A stretch of 64,000 nt of DNA from an uncultured Candidatus Saccharibacteria bacterium (GCA_964371445.1 CAYJLK010000003.1:1108-65107), one strand, 5' to 3'. Counted from the stretch's first letter, positions 11,779-61,818 are shown. Notes: a model not told the origin generated them from the letters alone. Numbers and translations are program-made.

Positions 11779-13109
11779 AGATACGACAGCGGGTTTAGGT
11801 AGGCGGTCAAAGTGGCGACCGGCATTTTGGCGTTCGCACAGCCAACCGTTGAGCCGCGGAATTGCTTCAGGGTCATGATTTGTGTCCCTTCGGTTGCATA
11901 CACGCCGAAGTGGATGTGCGGTCCGGTCGCGTAGCCCGTCATGCCGGAAAGGCCGACGAGCTGCTTCGTAGACACCTCCTGCCCTTTTGCCACGTCAATG
12001 GAGGAGAGGTGCGAATAGAGCGTGCTGAGCCCGTTGCCGTGGATAACCATCACCCACTTGCCGAAGGAGTAGCACCCGCGCACCAGATCGGTATTGCCAG
12101 TGTCGAGCACCGTCCCCTCGAGTGACGCATAGACGGGCGTGCCGATGGGCGCCGCGATATCGATGGCGTTATGGCCTTTTCCGTTATACACCTGCGGGTT
12201 CGCGGTCGAGAACGGCGTGTTGCCGAAAAATTGTGTGATGCAAAAGAGATTTCCGAATACGCTCTTACGCTGAGTGCAATTGAACATAAAGGCATTGCTA
12301 AACGGCCACGAGAGCACGCCCGAACCGACTTTCGGCAGAAGACCGGGATGCACGATAAGATTCAATTGGCCCTGCAGATTGAGGAGTTCCTGTTCAAACG
12401 CTTTTTCTGCCGCCTGCTTCTGCGCGATGAGCTTCTGGTAATTCGATTCCTGATTTTTTGTATCGGAGAGCAGTTTTTGTTGTGCTGCCTTGTTTGCGTC
12501 GACCGAACGCTTTTGGAGAGTGAGCTCCTTTTGGAGCGACAGGAGCTGGGCTTTTTTTGCAGAAACTTCGTCGCGATTGGTCGCGAGTTCGGTGCGCACG
12601 GCGCGGAGGTCTGCAATATCGTTCCCTAACGCCCGATTGAACTGCACCGCATGATCGACCGCTTGCCACGCCTCGCCGAGCGTGTCTCCAGAGAGAAGTT
12701 GTGTCACGAGCGATGATCGTTCGTCTTGCGCGATACGGCGAAGCGCTTTTGCGATCGCGTCTTTGTCGTCCGCGATTGACTGCTCCTTGTCGCCGATGGA
12801 GCGAGTAAGCTCTTGTATCTGGAGGTTTGCGGAGGCGATCTTGCTCTGTGTCACCTTTATCTGCGAGGCGAGCTGTTTCTGCGAGAGGGTGAGAGCGCTG
12901 ATCGTCGACTGGAGCGTATTTTTCTTCGCACCAAGCACATCAAGCTCTTTCTGGAACGCGGCAATGTCCGCCTCGAGCGATTTGATCTGCGCGCTGTTCG
13001 CATCGATCTGGGCTTGGATGTCAGCGGCCGACTGCGCCGTAGCCGTCGGCGCAGGCAATAGAAAAGAAATTCCCAGGAGGAGGAAGAAGGTGCAACGAGC
13101 GAGACTCAT
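11775..13109 (-). CDS. M23 family metallopeptidase with N-terminal signal peptide and long coiled-coil (EnvC-like)
   Basis: HxxxD (GHNAIDIAAP) and HxH (GPHIHFG) motifs; coiled-coil N-terminal half. The ATG at 13109 overlaps the gltX stop as ATGA. Confidence 0.85.
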   Translation of the reverse strand: MSLARCTFFLLLGISFLLPAPTATAQSAADIQAQIDANSAQIKSLEADIAAFQKELDVLGAKKNTLQSTISALTLSQKQLASQIKVTQSKIASANLQIQELTRSIGDKEQSIADDKDAIAKALRRIAQDERSSLVTQLLSGDTLGEAWQAVDHAVQFNRALGNDIADLRAVRTELATNRDEVSAKKAQLLSLQKELTLQKRSVDANKAAQQKLLSDTKNQESNYQKLIAQKQAAEKAFEQELLNLQGQLNLIVHPGLLPKVGSGVLSWPFSNAFMFNCTQRKSVFGNLFCITQFFGNTPFSTANPQVYNGKGHNAIDIAAPIGTPVYASLEGTVLDTGNTDLVRGCYSFGKWVMVIHGNGLSTLYSHLSSIDVAKGQEVSTKQLVGLSGMTGYATGPHIHFGVYATEGTQIMTLKQFRGSTVGCANAKMPVATLTAYLNPLSYL

Positions 13110-14455
13110 CCTTCGAGTATAGCAATAGCTTTCTGTACGCGCGAAACCGATTCTTCGGGGCCGAGGATCGCTATAAGCGTGAAGGGGTCGGGCGATCGTT
13201 CCTGTCCGGAAAGTGCGTAGCGCAAGGGCCATAGGACGGCGCCGCGACCCCCCTTCCCTTTTGCTTCTTCGGCGTCCGCTACGGGCATAATGACCTCTTT
13301 CACCGACTCGACAGAAACGCCCTCGGGAAGCGATTTTACGGCCTTACAGAGGGTTTCTAGGGCGGTTTTAGCCACTCCAGGGCGGTCAGGGAGCTCCTTG
13401 GCGAGGAGGCCGTCCAGGCTTGGTGCGGGCGCACTGAACAAGCACTTTAGCTCTCCGTCAAGCATCTCGCGCGCCTCGCCAAACGTACGGGCACGCTCTT
13501 TCAGAAGAGGTACAGCCCTACGGAATTTCTCGTCGCCCATGTTGGACGTACTACGTCCAACATGCAAATGTATGAGGAAATCATCGTCGGAGAGCGCGCG
13601 CATCCAATGTTGATTGACCGAGAGGAGTTTTGTCTCGTCAAATACCGCCCCTCCCTTTTGCACGCGAGACAGGTCAAAGGTCTCGATGAGCTCTTCTCGC
13701 GAGAGATACTCGCGGTCGTCGCCCGGATTCCAACCGAGAAGCGCGAGGTAGTTGAGCATAGCCTCCGGCAGTACGCCCATGTCGCGGTATTCGTACAGAG
13801 GCTTCGCGCCGGTACGGGTCGAAAGCTTTGTTCGGTTCGTATTTAGAAGAAGTGGCACGTGCGCGTAGATGGGGTGCGGGAGGCCGAGTGCCTCTTGTAT
13901 CAGAATATGGCGCGGCGTGTTTGAGATATGGTCTTCGCCGCGTATAACGTGCGTCACCTTCATATCGCCGTCGTCCACGACGACGGCGAAGTGATAGAGC
14001 GGGTCATCGATAGCTCGCGCGATGACGAAGTCGCCAAGCTCGGTCGTGTCAAAGGTAATGTCGCCGCGTATCTCATCGTGGAACGTCAGGTTCGTTTTTG
14101 GGTTGCGCAGGCGCACCACGTCAACCATGACGGCGGGGTCATCTTTTTTAGGTTCATGCGAGAGATAGGCTTTGTCTTCGGCAATCAGTTTTTGCAACAG
14201 TTCTTTGTGGCGTTCCATGCGGTCGCTTGAGCGCGTCGGCGGTTCAGACGGCATGAGGTCAAGCCAGGCGAGCGTGTCGAATATGTTTTGTTCGTATTCG
14301 GGTTTAGAACGCGCCTTGTCGGTATCTTCAATCCGCACGAGTGAAGAACCGTTCGTATGCTTTGCAAATAGATAACAAAAAACGGCAGTACGATAATTAC
14401 CGGCGTGTTTGAGGCCGGTCGGCGACGGCGCGAAACGGGTGATAACGGGACTCAT
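13106..14455 (-). CDS. gltX: Glutamyl-tRNA synthetase
   Basis: RFAPSPTGLKHAGN (HIGH region) and KLSTRTG (KMSKS-type) class I motifs. Confidence 0.9.
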   Translation of the reverse strand: MSPVITRFAPSPTGLKHAGNYRTAVFCYLFAKHTNGSSLVRIEDTDKARSKPEYEQNIFDTLAWLDLMPSEPPTRSSDRMERHKELLQKLIAEDKAYLSHEPKKDDPAVMVDVVRLRNPKTNLTFHDEIRGDITFDTTELGDFVIARAIDDPLYHFAVVVDDGDMKVTHVIRGEDHISNTPRHILIQEALGLPHPIYAHVPLLLNTNRTKLSTRTGAKPLYEYRDMGVLPEAMLNYLALLGWNPGDDREYLSREELIETFDLSRVQKGGAVFDETKLLSVNQHWMRALSDDDFLIHLHVGRSTSNMGDEKFRRAVPLLKERARTFGEAREMLDGELKCLFSAPAPSLDGLLAKELPDRPGVAKTALETLCKAVKSLPEGVSVESVKEVIMPVADAEEAKGKGGRGAVLWPLRYALSGQERSPDPFTLIAILGPEESVSRVQKAIAILEG

Positions 14456-26290: not shown

Positions 26291-27349
26291 TCATGCGCCG
26301 CGCTCTTTGGCATATCGCTCGCAGATTTTGCGCACCAGGCCAGGACCCTCGAAGACCATCCCCGAGACGAGCTGGACGAGGTCGGCGCCGGCGGCAAACT
26401 TCGCCATCGCCTGGTCGGGAGTGAAGATGCCTCCCGTACCGATAATCGTGAACCGCTTCCCATACTTCGCCCGGGTCTTCTTGATAAGCTCGTTCCCGAG
26501 TGCGAAGGTGGGTGCGCCCGAGAGCCCGCCGCGGAACTCTTTCGGCGCATCTTCGGGGTAGGTTAAGTCATCGTAATTCTTATTCAAATTACCGATGATG
26601 ACGCCTTGTATCTTGTTCGTATCGGCGATATCGAGCATCTTTTCAAATTGTTCCCACGGGACGTTGATGGGCATCTTGAGATAGACCGGCTTTGTACAGG
26701 GTATCTCGCGCAGGCGCGGCAGAAGCTTCGCGAGGAGCTCGGGGTTGGTAAACGTCTCGCCGGTAAATGAGTTTGGGCAGGAAATGTTGATGGTGTAGTA
26801 GTCGCCGATGCCCTTCGCATTCAGCTTCTGGAATGATTCAACATAGTCGAAGATGCCGGCTTCAGTGTCAGCCGATGCGCTCTGTATATTGGTGCGCGCT
26901 ATCGAGATGCCAAGCACGAAATTTTGGACACGGCGTGTCCTAGATAGTTTTTTGATGAGCGCATTGACGCCACGGTTGCGGAGCCCTTTGTACACGACGA
27001 GGCTTTTATTGCGGATGAGGCGCGTCATCCGCGGGAGCGGATTGCCCTCGCAGGGGTGGGCGGTGACCGAACCGATTTCCTCTCCGCCGAAGGCGAGCGC
27101 GGGCAGTATCCGCGTGAGCCGTCCGTCCGCGTCGAAGCCGGCGGAGAGCAGGACGGGCGTGCGATACGTGATGCCGTCTACGGTTTTACTGATGTCGGGA
27201 CCTCGGTAGTTATATAAAAAGCTGAAGATTTTCCGCTTCAGCGCAAATCGTCCAGCTAGCTCGCCAAGCGTTATGAAGATCTCGTGCACCGTGTCCGGAC
27301 TCATCCTGAAGAGTATCGGCTTCAGTGCGCGACGATACAAAAAGTCCAT
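26291..27349 (-). CDS. pyrD: Dihydroorotate dehydrogenase (class 2, quinone)
   Basis: N-terminal membrane-association helix, FMN-binding TIM-barrel motifs, active-site Ser region. Confidence 0.9.
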   Translation of the reverse strand: MDFLYRRALKPILFRMSPDTVHEIFITLGELAGRFALKRKIFSFLYNYRGPDISKTVDGITYRTPVLLSAGFDADGRLTRILPALAFGGEEIGSVTAHPCEGNPLPRMTRLIRNKSLVVYKGLRNRGVNALIKKLSRTRRVQNFVLGISIARTNIQSASADTEAGIFDYVESFQKLNAKGIGDYYTINISCPNSFTGETFTNPELLAKLLPRLREIPCTKPVYLKMPINVPWEQFEKMLDIADTNKIQGVIIGNLNKNYDDLTYPEDAPKEFRGGLSGAPTFALGNELIKKTRAKYGKRFTIIGTGGIFTPDQAMAKFAAGADLVQLVSGMVFEGPGLVRKICERYAKERGA

Positions 27350-30492: not shown

Positions 30493-32412
30493 TTACGGTT
30501 TCTCTTTGAACTCGGCGTCGGTTGCCGGAGGGGCATCGGGTGGGGGCGTCTGACCTCCCTGCTCGCCGCCCGCTGCGGGCGGCGTAGTCTGCTTCGCCAT
30601 TGCTTCGCCAATTTTCGAGAGCGCGGCCGAGAGCGTCTCGGTCGCCGACTTGATAGTGCCCGCGTCTTCGCCCGCTCGCGCGGTCTTGAGCGCATCGATC
30701 TTGTCCTGTACCTCCTTCACTACTTCTGCCCCAGCCTTCTCGCCGAAGTCCTTGATCGCCTTCTCGCCGAAGTCCTTGATCGCCTTCTCGCCCGCGTAGA
30801 CCGCCTGGTCGGCGATGTTCCGCGCCTCGACGAGCTCTTTGCGCTTCTCGTCATCAGCGGCATGCGCCTCGGCGTCTGCCTGCATCTTCGCGATGTCATC
30901 TTTAGAAAGTCCCGTGGAGCCCTCGATGCGGATCGACTGCTCCTTGCTGGTCGTCTTCTCCTTCGCCTTGACCGTGAGGATGCCGGAGGCGTCCACATCA
31001 AAGGTGACTTCCACCTGCGGCATGCCGCGTGGCGCGGGCGGGATCCCGTCGAGCATAAACTTGCCCAAGGACTTGTTGTCGGCACTCATCGCGCGCTCGC
31101 CCTGGGTAATATGAATCTCGACCGACGGCTGATTGTCGGCAGCGGTCGAGAAGGTTTGCGAGCGAGAAGTAGGGATTGCCGTGTTGCGCTCGATAATCTT
31201 GGTCGCGACGCCTCCCATCGTCTCGATCGAGAGCGAGAGCGGGATGACATCAACAAGCAATATGTCCTTCACGTCCCCTTGCAGGATGCCCGCCTGAATC
31301 GCCGCACCGATGGCGACAACTTCGTCCGGGTTCACGCTCATGTTCGGCTTCTTACCGAAGAATTTCTCTACAGCCGCTTGGAGCGCGGGCATGCGCGTCT
31401 GACCGCCGACGAGAATGACCTCGTGTATGTCGGGGATTTTGAAGGGCGATGCCTCCATCGCGCGCTTCGTAATATCCATCGCGCGTTCTATGAACTCGTT
31501 TGAAAGCTCTTCCAGCTTCGCGCGGCTCATCTTGATAAGCAGGTGGCGCGGACCGGAGGCGTCGCTGGTGAGGAACGGAATGTTGATTTCTGTCTCCATC
31601 GCGCTCGAGAGTTCTATCTTCGCCTTCTCGGCGGCCTCGTCGAGGCGCTGGCGCGCGAGCGCATCGGTGCGCACATCAATGCCGCTCTCCTTCTTAAACT
31701 CGTCCGCGAGCCAGTTGATAATTTTCTGATCGATGTCCTTGCCGCCGAGGTGCGCGTCGCCGTCGGTCGACTTCACCTCGATCACGTCGCCGCCCACTTC
31801 GAGCACGGAGATGTCAAACGTGCCGCCGCCGAAGTCAAAGACGGCGATCTTCTCATCTTTCTTTTTATTAAATCCGTATGCGAGCGCAGCAGCGGTCGGC
31901 TCGTTGATGATGCGAAGCACTTCGAGGCCGGCGATCTGCCCCGCCGCCTTGGTCGCACTGCGCTGGTCGTCGTTAAAGTAGGCGGGGACGGTGATGACCG
32001 CCTGTGTCACCTTCTCGCCGAGCTTCGTTTCGGCGTCGGCCTTCATCTTGCCGAGGATCATCGCAGAGATCTCTTCAGAGCGGTACCACTTCTCGGTCAT
32101 CTTGACCTCGATACCGCCGTTCTCCGCCTTCCGCATCTCAAAAGGGACGACCGCCTTATCCTTCTGCACCTCCGGCTCGTCAAACGTGTGGCCGATGAAG
32201 CGCTTGATCTGGAAGATGGTGTTGAGCGGGTTGGTCACCGACTGGCGCTTGGCCAAGGTGCCGACGATGCGCTCGCCATTCTTCCCCACTGCCACGATAG
32301 ACGGGGTCGTGCGCGCACCCTCGGCGTTCTCGAGAACGCGCGGTTCGCCGCCCTCCACGACAGCCATCGCGGAATTCGTGGTGCCCAAATCAATACCGAG
32401 TATTTTTGCCAT
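30493..32412 (-). CDS. dnaK: Chaperone DnaK (Hsp70)
   Basis: [14 protein letters not shown] start at ATG 32412, full Hsp70 signature set. The C-terminal tail contains an in-frame 24-nt tandem duplication (KAIKDFGE x2). Confidence 0.95.
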
Positions 32413-32425
32413 AATGATAAATGAA

Positions 32426-32962
32426 TTAAACTTTGTGTCCGACACGCACTTTTGCCGGTCGAATAACGGTGTCGCCCACTCTCCAGCCCTTCTCAAGTAT
32501 GGATGTAATCATATCATTTTCTTTTTCTGATTCAACTTTGTCTTGACCCAATGCTTCGTGATAGACCGGATTAAATGCTTCGCCCACCTTGCCCACTTCC
32601 TCAAGCCCGAGCGCCGCGAAGGCGCCTTCCAATTGCTTCGCGATGGCGAGGAATCCTTCGGGGATTTCACCATGCTCTTTCGCGCGTTCGAGCGCGTCAA
32701 ACGCCGGCAGAAGCGTCTCTACCGCCCCTACCTTACCCTTTAACTGTGCGGCCGTGCCGTCGGTTTCTATGCGCTTCAAAAGGTTCACATAATCGGCCTT
32801 CGACCTCTGCCAGCCATCAAGATATTCCTGCTTGTCCTTGCGGCAGGCGCTGAGCTCCTCGCGAACCTTCGCAATTTTCGCCTCGGCGCGCTCCTCTCCG
32901 GCCTCGTCCCCCTCCGGTTCCACGACGCTGTTCTGGTCTATGTCATCGCCTTTCCATTCCAT
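32426..32962 (-). CDS. grpE: Nucleotide exchange factor GrpE
   Basis: Coiled-coil plus C-terminal beta domain. Start set at ATG 32962 (MEWKG), preceded by a TTGACC-17-CATAGT promoter-like element; longer in-frame extensions are possible. Confidence 0.75.
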
Positions 32963-33029
32963 ACGCTCACTATGCCCGAAATTTCTTACGGGGTCAATAA
33001 AACGAACGCCGCTCCGATTTTGGAGCGGC

Positions 33030-33212
33030 TCACGAGACATCGTCTTGTGGTTTTGGATTGGGTACAAACTCTGCATCCCACGTCCACCACTTGTCGTCTC
33101 TTTCGTGGAGCTCTTTACCGCAGTGGATGCAGTTTGTTGTCCCGCGAGCACCCTGCATCGCTTCGCATCGTCCCCTAATTTCGCAAATGGGGTTACCTTC
33201 TTCGTCTAACAT
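33030..33212 (-). CDS. Possible small zinc-ribbon protein (60 aa)
   Basis: CEIRGRC...CIHC four-Cys spacing. The stop abuts the hairpin GCCGCTCC-GATTTT-GGAGCGGC (33008-33029), which is followed by a T-rich tract. Confidence 0.3.
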   Translation of the reverse strand: MLDEEGNPICEIRGRCEAMQGARGTTNCIHCGKELHERDDKWWTWDAEFVPNPKPQDDVS

Positions 33213-33300
33213 GACGTTCTCCTCAAGATTGCCTGCAGAGACTCTATGTTCCTATCATGTTCAAGTCAAACCCGCCCCGCCGCCCCGAGCCGGAATCAAT

Positions 33301-33350
33301 TTAGGACATGACATGTCCTAAATGGGTTCAAGGAAGGACTGGGGGTGGTG
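33301..33350. repeat. Left copy of ~50-bp direct repeat containing 21-bp perfect palindrome TTAGGACATGACATGTCCTAA
   Basis: Matches 35579-35628 at 41 of the first 43 positions; the two copies differ at the palindrome centre (A vs T). Confidence 0.8.
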
Positions 33351-33391
33351 GAAAAATGAAATATCCTTTTCGCAAAGTCGAACCTTGCGAA

Positions 33392-33438
33392 GTCAAATAA
33401 AAAACGGCACAGAAGTTTTCGAGCTTCCTGCGCCGTTT
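33392..33438 (-). terminator. Intrinsic terminator for islet genes
   Basis: AAACGGCGCAGGAAG-loop-CTTCTGTGCCGTTT hairpin followed on the minus strand by TTTTTTATTTG. Confidence 0.45.
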
Positions 33439-33455
33439 CCGGAACTCCCGATGCA

Positions 33456-33590
33456 TCATTCCCATCCTTCGAACGAGCCCGGTTCGTTCGGTTGGACCAA
33501 CTGTTGCGGGGTCATCCCAGCATCCGGGACACCATCGTCGTTAAACCACTCCACCAACGTTCTCCACATGCGCTTGAGCAATTCCATCAT
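33456..33590 (-). CDS. Small ORF (44 aa) with canonical Shine-Dalgarno
   Basis: GGCGGAGGTA then ATGATG; the 44-aa form MELLKRMWRTLVEWFNDDGVPDAGMTPQQLVQPNEPGSFEGWE starts at the second ATG (33587), while the coordinate 33590 is the first ATG, 3 nt upstream. The terminator hairpin follows. Not in the ORF track because it is under 60 aa. Confidence 0.4.
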   Translation of the reverse strand: MMELLKRMWRTLVEWFNDDGVPDAGMTPQQLVQPNEPGSFEGWE

Positions 33591-33700
33591 TACCTCCGCC
33601 TATGTTGTGTGACTGGGAACAGTTTAAACCAAGTACAACGTAGCACCTTTCGGAATACACGATTCTTCCGTCGTTGGGATTCTCTCCAACGACGCCGCGA

Positions 33701-34018
33701 CTAGTGCATGAAGGCAATGGGAATGTTCTGGTCGCGCAGCGCTCGTGCGAGAGCGGTCCTTGTCGTCTGTATGTCCGAACAATAGATCCGCAGTTCCTGT
33801 ACCGAGCTTGATTGCCTCACCGTCAGGAGCAGGAACCCTTGCATGTCGCAGAATTTGACCTTTTGAGTCCCACCAGACGACCCAGTTCCATTCTGCAGCA
33901 GACCGAGCGAAATCCCTTTTACTTCTGCCAGTCGCGCAGCGATGTCTGCTACTTTGCCAGCCAAATCAGTGCATGTAGTGTGTGTACCTCTGAACTTCCC
34001 GCCATTACGATGCGGCAT
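33701..34018 (-). CDS. Hypothetical protein (105 aa), islet gene
   Basis: Has its own TTGACA-17-TATATA promoter and an AAGGGGG Shine-Dalgarno 4 nt upstream; no recognisable domain. Confidence 0.5.
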   Translation of the reverse strand: MPHRNGGKFRGTHTTCTDLAGKVADIAARLAEVKGISLGLLQNGTGSSGGTQKVKFCDMQGFLLLTVRQSSSVQELRIYCSDIQTTRTALARALRDQNIPIAFMH

Positions 34019-34061
34019 GATGCCCCCTTTGTTTAGATAGTTAGAATGTTCAGCTATTTCT

Positions 34062-34090
34062 TATATAACACGACACATTCATTATGTCAA
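34062..34090 (-). promoter_or_regulatory. Near-consensus sigma70 promoter TTGACA-17-TATATA for the 105-aa islet gene
   Basis: Exact -35, 17-nt spacer, TATATA -10, read on the minus strand. Confidence 0.5.
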
Positions 34091-34121
34091 ACCCTCACCG
34101 TTTTTTCAGGGTGGAAGATGG

Positions 34122-34157
34122 TGGAGTGAAAAGAAGACCGCCCTCAGGGAGGGCGGT
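34122..34157 (-). terminator. Intrinsic terminator after the 179-aa islet gene
   Basis: Perfect 9-bp stem ACCGCCCTC-AGG-GAGGGCGGT followed by CTTCTTTTCACT on the minus strand. Confidence 0.5.
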
Positions 34158-34182
34158 ACTACGAAAACTACAGAACCGACGG

Positions 34183-34722
34183 CTAGCTAACGAGACTCAG
34201 CTGTCCGCGCTTCGGGAACGGGCAGAGCAATGTCCGCCGTGGCAGGATGATTGAATCGTGTCCGTGGTGGGTATGGTTGATCCAATAATTCAGACCGAAC
34301 GAATTCACCCGAACCTGTTGGTGCTCGAGGAGCGTGATGCCCACCCAGAGTATCCCTTTGCTCACCGCGTTGCCCCAGTTCTTCTTCCCAGACCACGCGA
34401 GAACGAACTCGCTGCTGAAGGAGTCGAACTTGAACGGGTCGGCTGACTTGGGGTCCGGACATGCGGCGAACCAGCTGATATGGTCCAACGCAAAGTCACC
34501 GAGGAAATGCTTCGGATGTCGATATTCGATTACCTCACCACTCCGCTGGTGCCCGACCATTGCAATCGGTTCTGGCGTTGAAGCTGGTATATCGAACAAC
34601 GAGACCGTCCTGAGGGGCCTCTCGTACACGTAATCGTACTTGGTGCCCATGCGGATCTCGTAGAGGACGTCCAAAAGCGTTGCGACCTTCGGCATTACTT
34701 CAATGTGCTTCTTTCCAAACAT
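34183..34722 (-). CDS. Hypothetical protein (179 aa), islet gene
   Basis: AGGTGA Shine-Dalgarno 5 nt upstream of the ATG; His-rich C-terminal segment (NHTHHGHD); no recognisable family. Confidence 0.55.
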   Translation of the reverse strand: MFGKKHIEVMPKVATLLDVLYEIRMGTKYDYVYERPLRTVSLFDIPASTPEPIAMVGHQRSGEVIEYRHPKHFLGDFALDHISWFAACPDPKSADPFKFDSFSSEFVLAWSGKKNWGNAVSKGILWVGITLLEHQQVRVNSFGLNYWINHTHHGHDSIILPRRTLLCPFPKRGQLSLVS

Positions 34723-34856
34723 TTTATCACCTCGCTAGGAGAATGATTGCACTCGGAGGGCTAGCCTCACAAAGCGACGTCTCAGGATTGAGAACGTTTA
34801 ATTACACTACAATAAGTATTATCCGCCGTCCATACCTCTCCGAACCGGAAGTGATG

Positions 34857-34902
34857 GGGTAAAAAGTGAACCGCCTCCCAACGGTTCAGGTTGGTGGCGG
34901 TT
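34857..34902 (-). terminator. Intrinsic terminator after the HExxH gene
   Basis: AACCGCCTCCCAAC-loop-GTTGGTGGCGGTT stem followed by CACTTTTTACC. Confidence 0.5.
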
Positions 34903-34911
34903 TTAATCGAG

Positions 34912-35493
34912 CTAACGGAAGGTCATGTACGTGGCCGCATAGCTGACCTCGTCGAAAGTCAGGTAACCCTGAGTTCGCACTTCGCGAACACTGAGTCCCT
35001 CCATGGCATCTTTCTGCGAACTCACGTTGCGTATCGTGCGGCATCCGGTTATATAGAAATCCCGGAATCCCATCAGCATAGCGGCCAGGTCGACGGCTTC
35101 TTCTTGTTTGTGCAGCGGATGTCTGACGGAGTCGAGTAGGATGTGGCACAACTCATGCGCAATCGCACACGCCACCTCCTCAAAGCAACCTTCCGTCACG
35201 AATGACTTCCGGAGATACATCGTGATAAGGGTTTGCCTGAATTCCAGAGTTCCGAGCATGGGTATGCGTCTCGGGACGACTACCCATGCCGGCGCCCTTT
35301 CTCCGCCACCGTTGACCAACCCAAGGAGAACCCGCATGTCCAAGTGTAGGGCGCCCCTGATGTAATTGACCATCGCCGCGTAGTCCTGTCTGTTGTATTC
35401 GTGCCGCAACCGATCTTCTTCAATTGGCGGTCTGAGCGGGCCAAACGAAAGCCGCAGACTGTCGATGTAAGACTCGAGCATATTCTTTCTCAC
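34912..35493 (-). CDS. HExxH zinc-metallopeptidase-like protein (ImmA/IrrE- or SprT-like), islet gene
   Basis: AIAHELCHILLDS motif with downstream acidic residues. GTG start at 35493 with a GGGGGG Shine-Dalgarno; its own near-consensus promoter. Confidence 0.55.
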   Translation of the reverse strand: MRKNMLESYIDSLRLSFGPLRPPIEEDRLRHEYNRQDYAAMVNYIRGALHLDMRVLLGLVNGGGERAPAWVVVPRRIPMLGTLEFRQTLITMYLRKSFVTEGCFEEVACAIAHELCHILLDSVRHPLHKQEEAVDLAAMLMGFRDFYITGCRTIRNVSSQKDAMEGLSVREVRTQGYLTFDEVSYAATYMTFR

Positions 35494-35548
35494 AATATTC
35501 CCCCCGATTGTAATGTTCGAATTGAGTCTCTCGACTCGGCCAAGCTTT

Positions 35549-35577
35549 TATATATCACGCAAATACTGTTCTGTCAA
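35549..35577 (-). promoter_or_regulatory. Near-consensus sigma70 promoter TTGACA-17-TATATA for the HExxH gene; its -35 abuts the right palindrome
   Basis: The palindrome TTAGGACATGTCATGTCCTAA lies immediately upstream of the -35 on the minus strand. Confidence 0.5.
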
Positions 35578-35578
35578 C

Positions 35579-35628
35579 TTAGGACATGTCATGTCCTAAA
35601 TGGGTTCAAGGAAGGATTGTGGTGGGGC
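35579..35628. repeat. Right copy of ~50-bp direct repeat with 21-bp palindrome TTAGGACATGTCATGTCCTAA
   Basis: See 33301-33350; located just before the rpsI terminator. Confidence 0.8.
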
Positions 35629-35635
35629 AAAAACA

Positions 35636-35674
35636 AAAGAACGCCCGAGGTTATCGAGCGTTCTTTTTGTTTTA
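35636..35674. terminator. Intrinsic terminator of the rplM-rpsI operon (bidirectional hairpin)
   Basis: GAACGC-N13-GCGTTC flanked by T-rich tracts on both strands, directly after the rpsI stop. Confidence 0.55.
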
Positions 35675-36073
35675 TTAGCGTTTGCTCCACTGTGGGGCCT
35701 TGCGGGCTTTCTTGAGGCCTGGCTTCTTGCGCTCCTTGGCGCGCGGGTCGCGCTTGAGGAAGGTCGCAGCCTTCAAGACCTTGCGGGTGTTCGGCTCCGC
35801 CTTGATAATGGCGCGGCTGATCGCGTGGCGCACGGCGTCTGCCTGCGCGGCGATACCGCCGCCCGAGACGTGGGCCGTGACGGCGTAGTGCTCGGCACTC
35901 TCAGCCTTGGCGAACGCTTCTTCGGCAATGTGGGCGCGCAGGTCAGTCTTGAAATAGTCCTTCGCGGTTTTGCCGTTGACCGTGAGGCTCGACTTCGCAG
36001 CTTTCGCCATGCGGACGCTCGCGATAGCGGTCTTGCGGCGTCCGACGGCAGTGATGAAATTTTTTAATGCCAT
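35675..36073 (-). CDS. rpsI: 30S ribosomal protein S9
   Basis: C-terminal ...KKARKAPQWSKR and GGGIAAQADAVRHAISRA signature. Confidence 0.95.
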   Translation of the reverse strand: MALKNFITAVGRRKTAIASVRMAKAAKSSLTVNGKTAKDYFKTDLRAHIAEEAFAKAESAEHYAVTAHVSGGGIAAQADAVRHAISRAIIKAEPNTRKVLKAATFLKRDPRAKERKKPGLKKARKAPQWSKR

Positions 36074-36190
36074 ACCCCAAATGATTACCTTGCGCGGTTG
36101 CGCGTGCTGATAAAAGTTGCGGCAGCCACTCGCGTGGACTTGAACTCGGTGGACATACGGCTCTGGTGAGTAATCATACGGGGCAAGTTA

Positions 36191-36565
36191 TTATGCGTTG
36201 ACGACGAGATTTTTCATCCGCGGCGCACGCAGCTTGTTGCGCGGAATCATCCCGTCAACTGTCTTCTTGACCACCTCGGCGATACCCTTCTTGTCGATCA
36301 TCACGTCCATGCGCACCTCACGCAAACCGCCCGGGTAGCCGGTGTAGTGCGTGTAGACCTTCCCTTTTGCACGGCGGTCGGTGATATGGAGCTTGCTCGC
36401 ATTGTTGATAGTGACGGTCATCGGGAGCGCCTGATTCTTAGCGAAGTGTACCGACTTCTTGCCCAAGAGTGCGCTCGCCGCCTCGCTACACACGCGACCG
36501 AGCGTGCGGTCGGTCGCGTCGATGATGTAGGTTGTGGGTGCCGGTTTGGTGTTGGAAGTTGCCAT
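36191..36565 (-). CDS. rplM: 50S ribosomal protein L13
   Basis: YIIDATDRTLGRVCSEAASALLGK aligns to the L13 N-terminus; ATG at 36565. Confidence 0.9.
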   Translation of the reverse strand: MATSNTKPAPTTYIIDATDRTLGRVCSEAASALLGKKSVHFAKNQALPMTVTINNASKLHITDRRAKGKVYTHYTGYPGGLREVRMDVMIDKKGIAEVVKKTVDGMIPRNKLRAPRMKNLVVNA

Positions 36566-36581
36566 GGATGAGATATGAATA

Positions 36582-36935
36582 CTAGACAAATGCTATATAC
36601 GCAAGCTTGCGCGCGTCATTTGAGCCGCGGAGCGTGCGTTTTGTGATGCGGGTGTAGCCACCTTTGCGGTCGGCATAGCGCGGGCCGATAGTGCCGAAGA
36701 GCTTCTTCACCGCCTCCTTGTCGTGGATGCGCTGGATGGCGAGCCGACGACTGGCGAGCGTGTTCGACTTCGCATAGGTGACGAGCCGTTCAATAAACGG
36801 ACGGAGCGCCTTTGCCTTGGCTTCGGTCGTCGAGATGCGCTCTTCGAGGACGAGGGAGCGAGCGAGCGAGCGGATCAACGCCGCGCGCTGTCCGGTCTCG
36901 CGATGGAAGGTCTGTGCTTTTTTAGTAAATGCCAT
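36582..36935 (-). CDS. rplQ: 50S ribosomal protein L17
   Basis: L17 signature KAKALRPFIERLVTYAK...GGYTRI. Confidence 0.9.
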   Translation of the reverse strand: MAFTKKAQTFHRETGQRAALIRSLARSLVLEERISTTEAKAKALRPFIERLVTYAKSNTLASRRLAIQRIHDKEAVKKLFGTIGPRYADRKGGYTRITKRTLRGSNDARKLAYIAFV

Positions 36936-36940
36936 ATGTC

Positions 36941-37891
36941 TTATTCACCTTTCAGGGTGAGGCCGAAGCCGGCGAGAGATTCAGAAATCTCTTCAACCGC
37001 CTTCTCGCCGATGCCGTCGAGCTCTTTAAGTTGGGTCGCCGACTTGCGTGCGAGACCGGCAGCACTCTTGATGCCGGCGCCTTCAAGCGAGGAAACGATG
37101 CGTGCGGAGAGGCCCATATCGGCGACCTTCACCTTCGTCGCCTCAGTGGTGCCCTCGGCAGACGCCTTCGCTGTGGAACCGCCTCCTGTCGACACCGGCT
37201 CGTTCTCCTGGAAGCCGATCACGGCGCGGAGCTGGTGAATCATCGTCTCGATGGACTGCTCAAGCGCCTCACGCGGCGCGATGGTGCCGTTGGTCTCGAT
37301 AAGGATGCGCAGGCGATTGAAATCGGTGCGGTCGCCGACGCGCATGTTCTCCACCTCATAGTTCACACGGCGGATCGGCGTGAAGGTCGCATCAAGTGCG
37401 ATAGTGCCGATGTCGACCTTATCTTTCGTGAGCACCTCGCGCGCGACGTAGCCCAAACCGCGCTCGATAGTCGCTTCGAGCTCGAGGACCGCCTTACCCG
37501 AGAGGTCAGCGATGTGCTGTTCGGGATTCTTAATCTCGACCTGGCTTGGCAGGTTAAAATCTTTTGCCGTAATCTCGCCGGTACCCTTCGCGACGAGTGA
37601 AATGGTCTGCGGCTCGTCGCCATGAAGCACGAAATGCACACGCTTGAGGTTCAAGAGGATCTCCATGACCGTCTCGCGCGCACCGTCGATAGTGGCGAAC
37701 TCGTGCGGAACGCCCTCGATCTTCACCTGCGTCACCGCTGCGCCGGGGAGCGATGAGAGGATGATGCGGCGAAGCGAGTTGCCGAGCGTGTGACCGTAGC
37801 CCGGATAGAGTGAATCTATTTCATAGACGCCCTGCAGTCCTTCTTCAGAGACGATGCGCGGCTTGCTGGGAAGTGTAATGTGGTATTCCAT
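36941..37891 (-). CDS. rpoA: DNA-directed RNA polymerase subunit alpha
   Basis: Alpha N-terminal dimerisation domain (GHTLGNSLRRILLSS-like) and C-terminal domain. Confidence 0.95.
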   Translation of the reverse strand: MEYHITLPSKPRIVSEEGLQGVYEIDSLYPGYGHTLGNSLRRIILSSLPGAAVTQVKIEGVPHEFATIDGARETVMEILLNLKRVHFVLHGDEPQTISLVAKGTGEITAKDFNLPSQVEIKNPEQHIADLSGKAVLELEATIERGLGYVAREVLTKDKVDIGTIALDATFTPIRRVNYEVENMRVGDRTDFNRLRILIETNGTIAPREALEQSIETMIHQLRAVIGFQENEPVSTGGGSTAKASAEGTTEATKVKVADMGLSARIVSSLEGAGIKSAAGLARKSATQLKELDGIGEKAVEEISESLAGFGLTLKGE

Positions 37892-56046: not shown

Positions 56047-59000
56047 CTAACGGGGTACCACAAGATTGAGGATTTTCCCCGGTACATAAATAACCCTCTT
56101 TGGCTCATGTTCGCCGAGCGCGGTGGTCACGGGCGGGAGTTTGAGCGCTTGTGCAACGGCATCTTCTTCAGAGGCATCGACAGCGAGCGTAATCGAGCCA
56201 CGACGTTTGCCGTTCACCTGTACAACAACTTCTTTCTCGGTCGCGATGGCGATGTCAGCTGTCGGCCATGCGTGCGCGTGCACACTCCCCTCTTCGCCGA
56301 GTGTCTCCCAGAGGTGCTCGGCGAGATGCGGCGCAAACGGCGCGAGCATGACGATGAGTTGCGCGAGCGCGGCCTTCGGCACGGACGGCGCCGCTTCGAG
56401 CTCGTTCACGAGTATCATAAGCGCTGCAACTGCGGTATTAAGTTTAAACCGATCTCCGTCTCCGGATACTTTCACGCTTGCCGTCGCGAGCGCCTGCTTA
56501 ATATCTTCTGGAGTATCCTCAGGCATGGATGTCGTAAGTCCATATTTCTCAACAAGACGGGTGATGCGCTCAAGGAACTTGCGCATCGATGCGACGCCAT
56601 CCAGATTCCACGGGTAGCTCCCCGGCTCGTTGTAGGGGCCGATAAAGGCGAGGTAGATGCGCACCGCGTCTGCGCCATATTTCTGCACGAACTCGTCGGG
56701 GTTCACGACATTCCCTTTCGACTTACTCATCTTCTGCCCGTCGGGGCCCATGATGAGTCCGCGGTTGAAGCGCTCGGCAAAGGGTTCGTCGAAGGGCACG
56801 AGTGCGAGGTCGTAGAGCGCCTTCATAAAGAACCGCGCGTAGAGCACGTGCATGGTGGTGTGTTCGCTCCCGCCGGAGTAGCGATTAATCGGTAGCCACT
56901 TCTTCATCATCGCCGCATCAGAAAAGTTGTGTGCGTCCTGCGGATTCAGATAACGCAGGAAGTACCACGAGGAATCTACGAATGTATCCAGCGTGTCATA
57001 CTCCGGCGTCCAGCCTTCGCCGAAGATGCGTATAACACGTTCTTTCAGCTCTTGTGAAGACGCAAGTGGCGCCTTACCCGTGGGAGTGAAGTCAACGTCG
57101 GTCGGCAAAAGCCAGGGCAGATGTTCGGCAGGTATCGCGTGCGGCTTCCCTTCGGGATCGTAGACGATAGGTATCGGACAGCCCCAGTAGCGCTGGCGGG
57201 AGACCAGCCAATCGCGGAGCCGATACATCGTCGCCTTCTCGCCGCCGACCGCCTGCACGATGTCCCATATCGCTTCTTCGTTATCCCGACCATCGAATGT
57301 ACCGGAATTGATAAGGTAACCATTTTCAACCAGTGCTTCTTCTTTTTCTAATAATTGCCAGACCTGTTTCTGATGATCGGGAGTAAGACGAGAAAGGACC
57401 TCATTCTCTTCGGTCCAGACAAGTGTATGTTTCTTCTGTTCTGAAGTATGGATTACACCCTGTTCAGCAAGACTTTCTACTTCTGCGATGAAAGCATACG
57501 TATGAGCACAGCGATTCTCTTTTTTATGAGATGCACAGTATTTCGCAGATGTTATCCAGCGAAGTCTTTTGACGATACGGACATTCTTAAGTGCAGCTTC
57601 TTCACGAATTTCGGTCAATGCAGCCTCTTCCGGAGTTTGTCCCGACTCGACACCGCCCATGATGGCAGTAGTAATTCCTTCGAGTGTCTCGTGCCAATTG
57701 AGGAGCGCGAACTTGCCGGTTGATTTATCACGTAAATGAACGATAACCGTATCACGTTTAACCTCCTCGAACCCATCTTGAGGAGGATTTTTAGAGTCGT
57801 TAGCGCACGGTACCACTACTTGCTTTATTGGTAACTGCATTTTCTGCGCGAACTCAAAGTCGCGTTCGTCGTGCGCGGGGACCGCCATTACCGCGCCCGT
57901 GCCATAGGACGCGAGGACATAATCGGCGATAAAAATAGGAATTTCTTCTTTCGTCGCTGGGTTAATCGCAGAAACACCCTCCAGCCTCACGCCGGTCTTC
58001 TCCTTGTTCTCGCTTCGCTCGCGCTCGGTCTTCTGCGCCGTCTTCTGTATGTATTCTCGCACCTCCACCGTGTTATTGATGGACTTCGTAAATCCATCAT
58101 CTGAAAGGAACGAGTGTTCGGGTGCAAGCACGACATAGGTGGCACCAAACACCGTGTCCGGCCGTGTCGTGAATACTTTAATCTTCGTGTCTCGCCCAGA
58201 AACAGATATATTGAGACTTTCCAAAACGTCGGGCTCTTCTTTGTCTGTGTAATGCTCTCTTTTTGATGTTCCCGTAACGAGCTCTGCGTCGAGGTTTGCG
58301 GCCATCTTCTCCAAATAGACAATCCGGTCTTCTTCTTTGAGATCCGAAAGTATCAGGCGTTTAGGCGCTAACTTTTTAAGTGTTTCGAAATCAAATTCCC
58401 ATGAGAACGTAGTATGGAAGTTTTTATCTTCATTACTGTGTTTCGGATCCTTCGCTGCAGCGACGAGTACGAGTTCGCGAATAGGCTTACCGTGTTTTAC
58501 CAGCGCTTTCATCGCCACTATCGCACCTAGACTATGCCCGATGAGAACAGTGTTCTTATCCATCCGGCAGTTTTCCAACACATAAGCCACTTGATCCTTC
58601 TCCGTTGGATGGTCGGTATCCGGCATTTGCGGTGCCTGCACTTCATAACCCTTATTTTCTAGTTCTGTCTTTAGCCACGGGATGAAGTTTTTGTCTGCGC
58701 GGCCAGTCCATCCGTGCAGGATGATGAAGTTTGGTTTGTCATTATTGGCAATTGAGAACTCGAGATACGCGCCTTCCGACTTTCCTATCCACGCCCGTTG
58801 CGCCGTCTTAATCTCTTCGCGCCACGGGAGCGCATCGAGACCGGTCAAAAGCCGCTCAGCATAGTCGGTAATCTTGAAGAACCACTGCGTGAGCCGCTTC
58901 TCCTCAACTTCCGTACCGCACCGCTCGCAGTGCCCGTCGATGACCTGCTCGTTGGCGAGCACGGTCTGGTCCTTGGGACACCACTTCACCGCCGCCTCCC

Positions 59001-59451
59001 GATGTTCGGCAAGCTTGTGCTCAAAGAGCTTCGTGAAGAGCCACTGCGTCCACTGGTAGTAGCCCGGGTCGCAGGCCACCACCTCCTTACTCCAATCGAA
59101 CGACGCGCCCATGCTCTTGAGCTGGGTACGCATCCGCTCCATGTTCTGGTAGGTCCACTCCTTGGGGTCGACACCGTGCTTGATCGCCGCGTTCTCAGCC
59201 GGTAATCCGAATGCGTCGAATCCTATCGGGAACAGCACATTCTTCCCGCGCATGCGCAGCAGACGCGCGTAGATGTCGGTCACAGCAAAGGCGTACCAGT
59301 GGCCGATATGCAGGTCGCCGGAGGGATAGGGAAACTCGACGAGAAGGTAATACCCCTCTTTGGACTCGTCTTTGAGATCAGTGCGGTAGAGATCGAGACT
59401 TGCCCACTTCTCTTGGGCCTTCTTCTCTATCTCGCGGTGATCATACGCCAT
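56047..59451 (-). CDS. leuS: Leucyl-tRNA synthetase carrying two extra in-frame inserted domains (alpha/beta serine hydrolase and Nudix-like), 1134 aa
   Basis: HIGH (PSGDLHIGHWYAF) and KMSKS (KMSKSKGN) present, with a CP1 Thr-rich start TTRPDTVFGATYVVLAPEH. Two ~185- and ~150-aa insertions of lower GC lie relative to the bacterial LeuRS landmarks. Confidence 0.9.
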   Translation of the reverse strand: MAYDHREIEKKAQEKWASLDLYRTDLKDESKEGYYLLVEFPYPSGDLHIGHWYAFAVTDIYARLLRMRGKNVLFPIGFDAFGLPAENAAIKHGVDPKEWTYQNMERMRTQLKSMGASFDWSKEVVACDPGYYQWTQWLFTKLFEHKLAEHREAAVKWCPKDQTVLANEQVIDGHCERCGTEVEEKRLTQWFFKITDYAERLLTGLDALPWREEIKTAQRAWIGKSEGAYLEFSIANNDKPNFIILHGWTGRADKNFIPWLKTELENKGYEVQAPQMPDTDHPTEKDQVAYVLENCRMDKNTVLIGHSLGAIVAMKALVKHGKPIRELVLVAAAKDPKHSNEDKNFHTTFSWEFDFETLKKLAPKRLILSDLKEEDRIVYLEKMAANLDAELVTGTSKREHYTDKEEPDVLESLNISVSGRDTKIKVFTTRPDTVFGATYVVLAPEHSFLSDDGFTKSINNTVEVREYIQKTAQKTERERSENKEKTGVRLEGVSAINPATKEEIPIFIADYVLASYGTGAVMAVPAHDERDFEFAQKMQLPIKQVVVPCANDSKNPPQDGFEEVKRDTVIVHLRDKSTGKFALLNWHETLEGITTAIMGGVESGQTPEEAALTEIREEAALKNVRIVKRLRWITSAKYCASHKKENRCAHTYAFIAEVESLAEQGVIHTSEQKKHTLVWTEENEVLSRLTPDHQKQVWQLLEKEEALVENGYLINSGTFDGRDNEEAIWDIVQAVGGEKATMYRLRDWLVSRQRYWGCPIPIVYDPEGKPHAIPAEHLPWLLPTDVDFTPTGKAPLASSQELKERVIRIFGEGWTPEYDTLDTFVDSSWYFLRYLNPQDAHNFSDAAMMKKWLPINRYSGGSEHTTMHVLYARFFMKALYDLALVPFDEPFAERFNRGLIMGPDGQKMSKSKGNVVNPDEFVQKYGADAVRIYLAFIGPYNEPGSYPWNLDGVASMRKFLERITRLVEKYGLTTSMPEDTPEDIKQALATASVKVSGDGDRFKLNTAVAALMILVNELEAAPSVPKAALAQLIVMLAPFAPHLAEHLWETLGEEGSVHAHAWPTADIAIATEKEVVVQVNGKRRGSITLAVDASEEDAVAQALKLPPVTTALGEHEPKRVIYVPGKILNLVVPR

Positions 59452-60457: not shown

Positions 60458-60536
60458 AAGCATGCATTATACCACAAATAAGGTGTGCTATCGGCTTCCT
60501 ACACTATCAGCCGCTCGACTTAAATGCCTATTTCAG

Positions 60537-60582
60537 CCGTGGAGGAAGACCATCACATCATCGGTATAAAAAGAGTCCCCGC
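60537..60582. repeat. Copy 1 of duplicated ychF 3'-end segment (encodes ..DVMVFLHG-stop on the minus strand) plus shared terminator half-stem
   Basis: Identical 46-mer to 61251-61296; shares the core CCGTGGAGGAAGACCAT with the authentic ychF end. Confidence 0.85.
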
Positions 60583-60620
60583 GCGAGCGCAGGGACTGAG
60601 GATGGACAAGGGGTGGATCG

Positions 60621-61142: not shown

Positions 61143-61217
61143 GATCGTACCTCCCTCTCTTTTGGTTGCGTAAGGGGATATATTCCCCACCTTTATGTCT
61201 CAACGTGCTCTAAAACT

Positions 61218-61245
61218 AATATACTGAAATTTACTACTTCGTCAA
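61218..61245 (-). promoter_or_regulatory. Promoter-like element TTGACG-16-TATATT directly after the ychF-tail copy 2
   Basis: The -35 begins right after the pseudo stop codon; this is a paralogous position to the TTGACA element after the authentic ychF stop. Confidence 0.45.
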
Positions 61246-61250
61246 GTCAT

Positions 61251-61296
61251 CCGTGGAGGAAGACCATCACATCATCGGTATAAAAAGAGTCCCCGC
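61251..61296. repeat. Copy 2 of duplicated ychF 3'-end segment (encodes ..TDDVMVFLHG-stop on the minus strand)
   Basis: See 60537-60582. Confidence 0.85.
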
Positions 61297-61817: not shown

Positions 61818-61818
61818 G

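Follow-up and report, generated by a model that had tools for sequence, protein, structure and literature searches.

Exchange of accessory genes between fixed neighbours, or between short repeats, has been described in several systems, with which we compare here the interval between the ribosomal protein gene rpsI and the chaperone gene grpE in a 64,000-nucleotide (nt) stretch of DNA deposited as an uncultured Candidatus Saccharibacteria bacterium (GCA_964371445.1, CAYJLK010000003.1:1108-65107; this whole stretch, as it was analysed, is called the window). An islet of small genes in this interval is bounded by two direct repeats, each with a perfect palindrome. We consider, with a probability of about one half, that the two repeats are duplicated joints between gene cassettes, made by recombination in a hotspot that is common to the whole lineage. 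In the minimal mobile elements of Neisseria, cassettes between the same conserved genes are swapped by homologous recombination after transformation (PMC3787668, PMC1797815). As at our locus, the flanks are conserved, the contents are different whole-gene cassettes and none of them carries mobility genes, and in both cases some cassettes are shared between genomes at an identity above that of the core. Unlike in Neisseria, a joint module that is conserved and repeated, and that comprises a C-rich box, a G-rich box and a palindrome, stands between the cassettes studied here, and the 3' ends of core genes (ychF and rpsI) have been duplicated, which simple exchange through flank homology does not produce.

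Integron arrays and clusters of attC sites lacking integron-integrases (CALINs) resemble the locus in their short, mostly single-gene cassettes of uniform orientation, in an imperfect palindromic repeat at each joint, in the lack of an adjacent integrase (as in CALINs) and in the presence of toxin-antitoxin cassettes. In contrast to integrons, the window ORFs (open reading frames) tested gave no IntI, conservation of the R''/R' core sites (RYYYAAC / GTTRRRY) is not apparent by eye (YYYAAC occurs in about half of the joints, with no consistent GTTRRRY partner), the cassettes come with promoters and terminators of their own, the promoter lies in the joint, and the arrays are located at the 3' ends of core genes. 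Integrative elements bounded by attL and attR target the 3' ends of genes and carry a replacement end, as in tRNA-targeting islands and the integrase-less remnants of Prochlorococcus tycheposons. Flanking direct repeats are present here too, and the repeats at ychF in the window and at rpsI in two related genomes (L019 and L025 below) are synonymous copies of the target 3' ends. The repeat studied here, in contrast, lies after the rpsI terminator without any gene end, and the inserts are 0.6-2.3 kb long and lack integrase, excisionase and replication genes. A known single-species island with demonstrated excision is similarly small, with direct repeats of tens of base pairs (bp) and no recombinase of its own, whereas here no excision was seen and the repeats belong to a module family found throughout the lineage. 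The last class of comparison consists of palindromic repeats of the REP (repetitive extragenic palindromic) or MITE (miniature inverted-repeat transposable element) type and of 'mobile promoters'. With these the locus shares species-specific palindromic intergenic DNA and near-identical promoter modules before non-homologous genes, and it differs from REP and MITE sequences in the very low copy number seen in 64 kb, its uniform orientation, its confinement to accessory intervals and in that no cognate transposase was found.

By its GrpE relatives, the window belongs to a Kaiserbacteria-like lineage of the Paceibacterota. The two repeat copies, which form the first (J1) and the last (J4) of the islet joints in gene direction, are built as follows:

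35574-35633, minus strand: repeat copy 2 (joint J1), with the T-run of the rpsI terminator, the C-rich box GCCCCACCAC (35628-35619), TCCTTCCTTGAACCCAT, the palindrome and TTGA
35579-35599, no strand: 21-bp perfect palindrome TTAGGACATGTCATGTCCTAA of copy 2, ending 1 nt before the -35 box TTGACA of the peptidase gene
33296-33355, minus strand: repeat copy 1 (5' part, joint J4), with a T-run, the C-rich box CCACCACCCC (33351-33342), TCCTTCCTTGAACCCAT, the palindrome and ATTGA
33299-33323, no strand: perfect 12-1-12 palindrome ATTTAGGACATGACATGTCCTAAAT of copy 1, with the 21-bp core at 33301-33321
33271-33295, minus strand: G-rich box TTCCGGCTCGGGGCGGCGGGGCGGG of joint J4, the first 13 nt of which equal the box 5' of the 179-amino-acid (aa) gene of L019

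A repeat search returned a single two-copy direct repeat of 60 nt (33296-33355 and 35574-35633, 85% identity, 2278 nt apart), and both copies contain the 21-bp perfect palindrome TTAGGACATG(A/T)CATGTCCTAA. The earlier note, a reading of the sequence by a model, was thus right in describing direct repeats with a perfect palindrome, and they are not expected by chance: the pattern TTAGGACATGNCATGTCCTAA matches twice in the 64-kb window and not once in 100 shuffles, and only 0.05 perfect palindromes with arms of at least 10 nt are expected per shuffled window. The further copies that the same note had proposed to look for were absent from the window, even with up to three mismatches tolerated. 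A 43-nt core (33296-33338 and 35574-35616) differs between the copies at two positions, T/C before the palindrome and the central A/T; the divergence between the copies is concentrated in the C-rich box. Identity of the copies reaches 17 nt past the palindrome on one side only (TCCTTCCTTGAACCCAT). In copy 1 the palindrome is perfect as 12-1-12 (33299-33323) and can be extended to an imperfect 18-1-18 (33293-33329). Exact scans with the palindrome TAGGACATGNCATGTCCTA gave one unrelated chance match in the GTDB representative genomes (a metagenome-assembled genome of Alteromonadaceae), three matches in JGI metagenomes that by their sequence seem foreign to the lineage (two eukaryotic-looking, one very AT-rich) and none in IMG/VR, where the non-palindromic flank had no match either.

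Some observations touch on the palindrome in their own right. The window holds a symmetric relative of it with four mismatches at 26923-26943 (TTTGGACACGGCGTGTCCTAG, with a perfect 7-1-7 GGACACG-G-CGTGTCC) inside the dihydroorotate dehydrogenase gene, which is probably a matter of chance, and a 27-bp perfect palindrome, CATGTTGGACGTA-C-TACGTCCAACATG, at 13538-13564 within the coding sequence of glutamyl-tRNA synthetase (13106-14455, minus strand). The JGI scan did not return a 4316-nt JGI contig (P0162, P0164) of a slightly divergent strain with a variant GrpE and a variant of the 60-aa protein encoded next to grpE, and copy 1 may be missing or altered there.

The repeats belong to a family of joint modules. 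In gene direction, the module consists of a T-run, a C-rich box ACCCCACCACCCC, an optional AT-rich, odd-centred palindrome of ~21-29 bp, a G-rich box (TTCCGGYTCGGGG-AGGCGGGGAGGG) and a promoter. The T-run with the C-rich box was found at 14 cassette joints in four genomes (the window and the relatives L019, L021 and L025). Within the window, a T-run followed by ACCCCAYCAC is present at three to four joints, all of them in the islet, and this form is not seen in the rest of the window. In L025 a 91-nt module is repeated directly, in three copies (79% and 63% identity to the reference, spaced by 994 and 1620 nt), with the unit TTTT-ACCCCACCACCCC-[TTAGAAATC-W-GAYTCCTAA]-CGGGGCAYGCT-TTCCGGYTCGGGG-AGGCGGGGAGGG, and L019 has one module, in which a perfect 11-1-11 palindrome, CGTTAGAAATCAGATTTCTAACG, stands directly 5' of TTCCGGCTCGGGGAGG and the 179-aa gene. 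Joint J4 reads TTTTTCCACCACCCCC, then the shared core and palindrome, then TTCCGGCTCGGGGCGGCGGGGCGGG; its boxes follow the order of the L019 and L025 modules, and its palindrome occupies the equivalent position and shares the TTAG...CTAA ends. In short-form modules the C-rich box abuts the G-rich box without a palindrome, as in modules 5 and 6 of L025 and in joint J2 between the peptidase and 179-aa genes of the islet (TTTTTACCCCATCAC abutting TTCCGGTTCGGAG in gene sense). An nhmmer profile built from five long modules matched only these intervals (three times in L025, once in L019, and in the window), and its window matches were 33356-33268 (E=5.6e-16) and, partially, 35631-35584 (E=0.01). 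Copy 1 is a complete long module, and copy 2 is the 5' part of a module, without the G-rich box, fused to the peptidase promoter. Relative to the genes, the orientation is the same for every one of the 14 joints and for every palindromic insert. The promoter part recurs as well: a 51-nt promoter unit of 90% identity is found 5' of non-homologous genes in L025, and GGTTTGACTTGAA...CATAGAGTCT precedes both the 60-aa gene of the window and an unrelated 64-aa gene of L025. Module 2 of L025 has the terminator of a convergent gene downstream and no promoter.

The module family seems to be undescribed. In the literature, we found nothing describing such modules in bacteria of the candidate phyla radiation (CPR), although absence from the library searched is not proof of novelty. 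The module palindrome and C-rich box of the relatives gave only chance matches in IMG/VR, none of them with a module, and Rfam gave no match at E<=1 for 32000-37000 of the window and only chance-level matches, far short of the gathering scores and none on the module, for 4000-9000 of L025. The other palindromes listed for the loci of the relatives are mostly GC-rich, terminator-like hairpins. Long, perfect, AT-rich palindromes are present in the hotspots too. At 11112-11134 of L019 there is an AT-rich 11-1-11 palindrome (GTATTGAAGTCTGACTTCAATAC), after which 13 nt of its right arm are repeated in tandem, and L025 (13268-13311) and L021 (6259-6296) share the AT-rich palindrome AATTTTYGTCCTA|TAGGAYGAAAWTT, which is a perfect 22-0-22 in L025 and the central hexamers of which (GTCCTA/TAGGAC) are those of the window palindrome arms in permuted order.

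The long form of the module equals the short form with a palindromic insert of 30-43 nt at the exact joint of the C-rich box and TTCCGG, and this looks like an insertion or deletion. It could suggest a mobile palindromic element of ~40 nt, of the MITE or REP type, that was inserted independently beside two C-rich boxes, so that the likeness of the flanks would be the general likeness of such boxes. The C-rich boxes of the two copies are indeed no closer to each other than any pair of C-rich boxes, and the palindrome is species-specific, the GTDB representatives, the JGI metagenomes and IMG/VR being without it apart from chance matches. We nevertheless regard independent insertion as quite unlikely. 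Only two copies are present in 64 kb, both in the same islet and in the same orientation, and the uniform orientation of inserts and joints to the genes extends to all 14 joints. There is no clear terminal inverted repeat with a target duplication, as TTCC flanks J4 and not J1 and the 18-nt arms exist in copy 1 only, and neither a RAYT nor a transposase turned up in the islet or in the window ORFs tested, which were about 40 beside the islet and not all that the window holds. Moreover, the unit that is repeated in L025 is the whole 91-nt module and not the insert alone.

The interval in which the modules are found is variable in all genomes compared. The four relatives (L019, L020, L021 and L025; GrpE identity 74-80%) all keep the order infA-rpsM-rpsK-rpsD-rpoA-rplQ-rplM-rpsI on one side and grpE-dnaK-dnaJ on the other, and between rpsI and grpE each has 2.1-5 kb of small genes, a different set in each and with toxin-antitoxin pairs included. 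Together with the window, five genomes thus have five contents at the same place, without mobility genes. L019 carries a PIG-L deacetylase gene, a pair that we read as HicAB-like, a 179-aa gene and a 62-aa zinc-ribbon gene; L021 carries a 43-aa gene, which is the homologue of the 44-aa gene of the window, and a PEMT/ICMT-family gene; and L025 carries NYN, a DUF2283 gene after an uncalled ORF (which we read as its toxin partner), PemK and others. The homology of the window DNA to the relatives ends at the rpsI terminator (~35666) and restarts at ~33017, and because the gap spans 33017 to 35666, both copy 1 and the 60-aa gene lie inside the variable region. The 179-aa cassette with its promoter and terminator is shared between the window (34841-34119) and L019 (6204-6928) at 88% DNA and 91% protein identity, whereas the core flanks are ~80% identical. 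Homologues of the peptidase are found at unrelated loci with promoters of their own and no palindrome 5' of them. The interval between dnaK and dnaJ is a second hotspot in the relatives (L019 10484-12077, L025 11456-14446), with three to five small genes and with joints in which GC-rich hairpins are fused to a TTGACG -35 box; in the window it is empty, with a length of 69 nt.

Within the species, an identical RpsI is indexed in 31 collection blocks, and 23 contigs, all from one ENA study or its sequencing runs, were read and are displayed as 10 distinct places. The same islet is present on every same-species contig long enough to show it, and no population polymorphism was seen among the 10 loci, which are 99.9-100% identical base by base over the parts covered. 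Three of these contigs (L005, L008 and L009) stop 30-75 nt past a repeat copy (window 33221, 33259 and 35545); the longest exact shared stretch is only 27 nt, and low coverage or trouble with assembly at the palindrome may explain this rather than biology.

These comparisons bear on the proposal of the earlier note that the repeats are attL and attR of an integrated element that now lacks an integrase. Stated in full, a single foreign island of 2.3 kb would have integrated at an att site between rpsI and grpE and later lost its integrase. The direct repeats do flank compositionally deviant accessory DNA and are not there by chance, and integration with target duplication occurs in the lineage, at ychF and rpsI. 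An integrase was indeed not found among the ORFs tested: searches of Pfam, NCBIfam, PHROGs and PADLOC gave no recombinase domain for any of the five islet proteins, the other window ORFs scanned yielded neither a recombinase nor an obvious regulator, and no tyrosine recombinase was seen in those ORFs or in the Pfam lists of loci L019 to L025. In contrast, the islet does not behave as a unit, as L019 shares just its 179-aa cassette and L021 just its 44-aa gene, and its internal joints, J2 and J3, bear the same module boxes as its ends. Copy 1 lies within the variable region, with the accessory 60-aa gene beyond it, there is no integrase remnant, and the empty site with one repeat copy that had been suggested as a check was found neither in the 23 same-species contigs nor in the four relatives, which carry other cassettes and no copy of the repeat. 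To our knowledge, 2.3 kb is also far below the size of known integrase-borne elements. Because copy 1 is inside the variable region, the joint module recurs, and neither an empty site nor an integrase was found (the latter among the ORFs tested), a single discrete element is improbable, and the attL/attR proposal as a whole is only partly supported. The repeats look formally like attL and attR, yet they do not look like the ends of a self-contained integrated element.

Insertion with duplication of a target was observed at two core genes. Downstream of ychF (61819-62916), the window has two single-gene cassettes of 572 and 714 bp at 60514-61845 (minus strand), which encode proteins of 138 aa (61331-61747) and 189 aa (60621-61190, no Pfam match, hydrophobic by eye). 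Each cassette begins with CTTGAC immediately after a stop codon and ends with a near-identical terminator and a relic of the ychF 3' end, GAT GTG ATG GTC TTC CTC CAC GGN TGA, a synonymous copy that encodes DVMVFLHG-stop; the two relics (60533-60589 and 61247-61303) are 95% identical over 57 nt. The array thus shows target duplication without an integrase, and the 3' end of the gene is restored there. At rpsI, relics of the 3' end that encode APQWSKR-stop are present in L019 (4499-4569 and 5320-5396) and L025 (4184-4207) and, decayed, in L020 (3873-3896). They are located 100-800 nt 3' of the real rpsI end, and the pair of L019 brackets the PIG-L deacetylase gene. Between L019 and L025 the relics show 1 nt of difference, against 6 nt to the rpsI end of the same genome. 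By the relics at ychF and rpsI, these genomes habitually undergo insertion with duplication at the junction.

The flanks of the two repeat copies point to different parents. In J4, the C-rich box TTTCATTTTTCCACCACCCCCAG agrees with the sequence 3' of the 43-aa orthologue in L021 (TTTCATTTTTAACCCCATCACCCCAG), and the right flank consists of the TTCCGG box, equal to that 5' of the 179-aa gene in L019, and of a promoter module that is also present in L025. In J1, the rpsI terminator lies to the left and the peptidase promoter to the right, the latter similar to the promoter of the homologue in L012, which sits at an unrelated locus. Different parentage of the flanks around a shared core is the pattern expected from a single crossover between an incoming and a resident module. 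The repeat, the module family, the hotspot, the shared cassettes and the target duplications at ychF and rpsI are observations, whereas the crossover is a reconstruction. In such a history, a resident module would sit behind rpsI, and an incoming block of ~2.28 kb with the peptidase, 179-aa, DUF2103 and 44-aa genes would end in a module of its own. A single crossover between the module at the end of the block and the resident one, in the near-identical core (TCCTTCCTTGAACCCAT and the palindrome), would leave one hybrid copy on each side. Either a recombinase supplied in trans or RecA, using the 40-60 bp that the modules share, could be the agent. The palindrome, which retains its dyad symmetry although the sequence varies from genome to genome, may be the element recognised in the recombination, as a hairpin or by a dimeric protein. 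The whole module also supplies the predicted stop and start signals of the neighbouring cassettes.

Both copies lie on the gene strand 5' of predicted sigma-70-type promoters (promoters and transcription starts are predictions throughout), and the earlier note had offered, as its alternative, that the palindromes are paired operators. A dimeric transcription factor would then bind them and co-regulate the peptidase and 60-aa genes, perhaps also grpE-dnaK by read-through, for example in a stress response. The dyad symmetry of 10-1-10 is perfect, and the palindrome centres at ~-46 and -77 differ by ~31 bp relative to the promoters, roughly three helical turns. The adjoining operon encodes chaperones, and hrcA, absent before grpE here, is present in the organism that has the peptidase homologue P0015. 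In addition, variant palindromes are found 5' of several unrelated cassettes in the relatives, a pattern that the earlier note had itself named as favouring operators. Still, the one-sided 17-nt identity beyond the palindrome speaks against an operator, and the distance to the predicted promoters is not fixed, as it is ~-46 and -77 in the window and ~-87 and -92 in L019. Module 2 of L025 has neither a promoter nor a gene of its own downstream. Neither a regulator gene in the islet or the window ORFs tested nor a third site in 64 kb (up to three mismatches) was found, homologues of the downstream genes elsewhere have no such palindrome, and the short-form modules (J2, and 5 and 6 of L025) work without it. 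We consider the operator explanation weak and unlikely. Because of the additional 17 nt of identity, the mixed parents of the flanks and the target duplication at ychF, an origin by recombination or insertion fits the repeats better than convergent evolution of operators does. Two related candidates were dropped: the heat-shock operators CIRCE, HAIR and the CtsR box do not resemble the palindrome, and the 173-aa protein encoded after dnaJ, considered as an HspR-like regulator, is a membrane protein without a Pfam match.

Several points weigh against duplicated joints made by recombination. No recombinase gene was found in the islet or the window ORFs tested, and among the same-species contigs we saw neither an empty site nor an excision product nor polymorphism. 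Only two copies of the palindrome are visible, in 64 kb out of a genome of 0.72 Mb or more (judged by a 723-kb contig with an identical GrpE). Directional site-specific recombinases do not usually have perfectly symmetric sites, and the sole asymmetric base, the central A/T, differs between the copies. The promoter is inside the module, and transcriptional conservation alone could explain much of what is seen. The reconstruction of the crossover rests on four relatives with GrpE identity of up to 80%. Finally, a conserved structure of the module as RNA or single-stranded DNA was considered and dropped, as plausible folds exist on both strands, yet there are no compensatory pairs in the four sequences examined for covariation. 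The joints may have been made by a dedicated recombinase or by general recombination, and the palindrome may serve recombination or transcription.

A wider version of the recombination reading is tentative, and we think of it as possible though doubtful. Kaiserbacteria-like Paceibacterota would have an undescribed, integron-like platform for gene capture, with hotspots 3' of rpsI, dnaK and ychF, promoters borne by the cassettes and no linked integrase. Single-gene or toxin-antitoxin cassettes would be inserted singly by a recombinase encoded elsewhere, and each would be bounded either by a structured joint of ~80-90 nt or by a synonymous mimic of the target 3' end. The two repeats of the window would then be two recombination sites.

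The contents of the islet and its borders in gene direction, all on the minus strand, are given below, with promoters and terminators as predicted:

35635-35667, minus strand: rpsI terminator, the last conserved feature ahead of the variable interval
35549-35577, minus strand: promoter TTGACA-17-TATATA of the peptidase gene, with a similar TTGACAGA...TATATAAT 5' of the L012 homologue
34912-35481, minus strand: gene for a 189-aa HExxH zinc metallopeptidase, with an alternative GTG start at 35493
34867-34888, minus strand: intrinsic terminator of the peptidase gene
34838-34865, minus strand: joint J2, a short-form module with a T-run and the C-rich box ACCCCATCAC abutting TTCCGGTTCGGAG, without palindrome
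34183-34722, minus strand: 179-aa gene with no assigned function, of a tiny family (8 representative clusters among 1.8 billion)
34137-34157, minus strand: intrinsic terminator of the 179-aa gene; next comes the degenerate C-rich box CTCCACCATC (34129-34120) of joint J3
34062-34090, minus strand: promoter TTGACA-17-TATATA of the 105-aa gene, read from the sequence
33701-34018, minus strand: 105-aa DUF2103 (predicted metal-binding) gene (E=1.2e-5, above the gathering score)
33456-33590, minus strand: 44-aa gene, 51% identical to the 43-aa gene directly after rpsI in L021
33241-33269, minus strand: promoter-like TTGACT-17-TAGAGT before the 60-aa gene; its homologue in L025 (6848-6890) is a promoter module that drives a non-homologous gene
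33030-33212, minus strand: accessory gene for a Cys-rich (zinc-ribbon-like) protein of 60 aa, with a promoter and terminator of its own
33008-33029, minus strand: terminator of the 60-aa gene; homology with the relatives resumes at ~33017, from the grpE promoter

The four minus-strand genes that had been reported between the repeats (189/193, 179, 105 and 44 aa) are present, and a fifth, the 60-aa gene between copy 1 and grpE, had been overlooked. The two TTGACA-17-TATATA promoters were also found as described (35577-35549 and 34090-34062). The claim that each gene has a private promoter and terminator holds in part: the promoter of the 179-aa gene is weaker than this pair, the 3' hairpin of the 105-aa gene has no T-run, and the 44-aa gene has a terminator (~33395-33436) and a second hairpin (~33370-33390) but no clear promoter of its own. 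The islet probably consists of three transcription units and not four. That the islet is lower in GC than its surroundings was borne out by 52.3% against 56.3% for the window, although at the 7th percentile other stretches of the window are lower still; by tetranucleotide usage, the k-mer comparison that had been suggested, it stands at the 98.7th percentile of deviation within the window. GC at third codon positions is lower in the islet genes than in rpsI, dnaK and rplM.

The peptidase family comprises 29 proteins found, and the few that are named by their source belong to Paceibacterota/Pacebacteria. H109, E110, H113, H121, E127, E128 and D131 are invariant. The predicted model has a pLDDT (predicted local distance difference test) score of 93, and its nearest folds, the minigluzincins (selecase) and SprT/Spartan-type proteins, are both weak matches (E ~0.03). 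The 60-aa gene is absent from the rpsI-grpE locus of the relatives, and its three homologues found are all on short contigs in unrelated contexts, none with the palindrome. As with the peptidase homologues, this shows that the palindrome does not travel with the genes by inheritance. A phage or defence origin of the cargo was considered and dropped, as there were no meaningful matches in PHROGs or PADLOC.

Other identities of the repeat were tried and rejected. A gene 3' relic within it, in a frame that ends in ...PQSFLEPI-stop with two synonymous differences, has no gene with such an end in any of the loci, and a tRNA fragment, suggested by the T-loop-like GGTTCAAGG, has its stem unpaired and gave nothing in Rfam. 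A parS site, a DNA-uptake sequence, an invertible segment and CRISPR were dropped on architecture or copy number; all contigs showed one orientation. A dif/Xer site is not indicated either: the palindrome is continuous to a 1-nt centre, unlike the dif consensus, and the stretch profiled, 28-41 kb, had no clear switch in GC skew, with nearly all likely genes of the window on the minus strand. Among the neighbouring genes, the 3' region of dnaK (30725-30786) has a tandem 24-nt duplication that gives a repeated peptide near the C-terminus, and since some same-species contigs encode a DnaK of 631 aa and not 639 aa, the repeat may vary in copy number. The leucyl-tRNA synthetase (56047-59451, minus strand; 1134 aa) has Pfam matches to a Ser_hydrolase alpha/beta-hydrolase (243-392) and to NUDIX (567-695) inserted among the synthetase domains.

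Bacteria of the CPR (Patescibacteria) are ultra-small, with tiny genomes that are thought to be poor in mobile elements, and little is understood of the routes by which accessory genes enter and leave them. At this locus, accessory genes, among them those for a zinc peptidase restricted to the lineage, for toxin-antitoxin pairs and for small orphan proteins, are gathered in fixed intervals behind core genes. If the joints between them are only transcriptional punctuation, the islet would be an ordinary variable one. In case the joints are substrates of recombination, the module profile, the AT-rich perfect palindromes and the 3' relics of core genes would together provide a searchable signature of gene flux in this lineage, which could be used to find the enzyme responsible.

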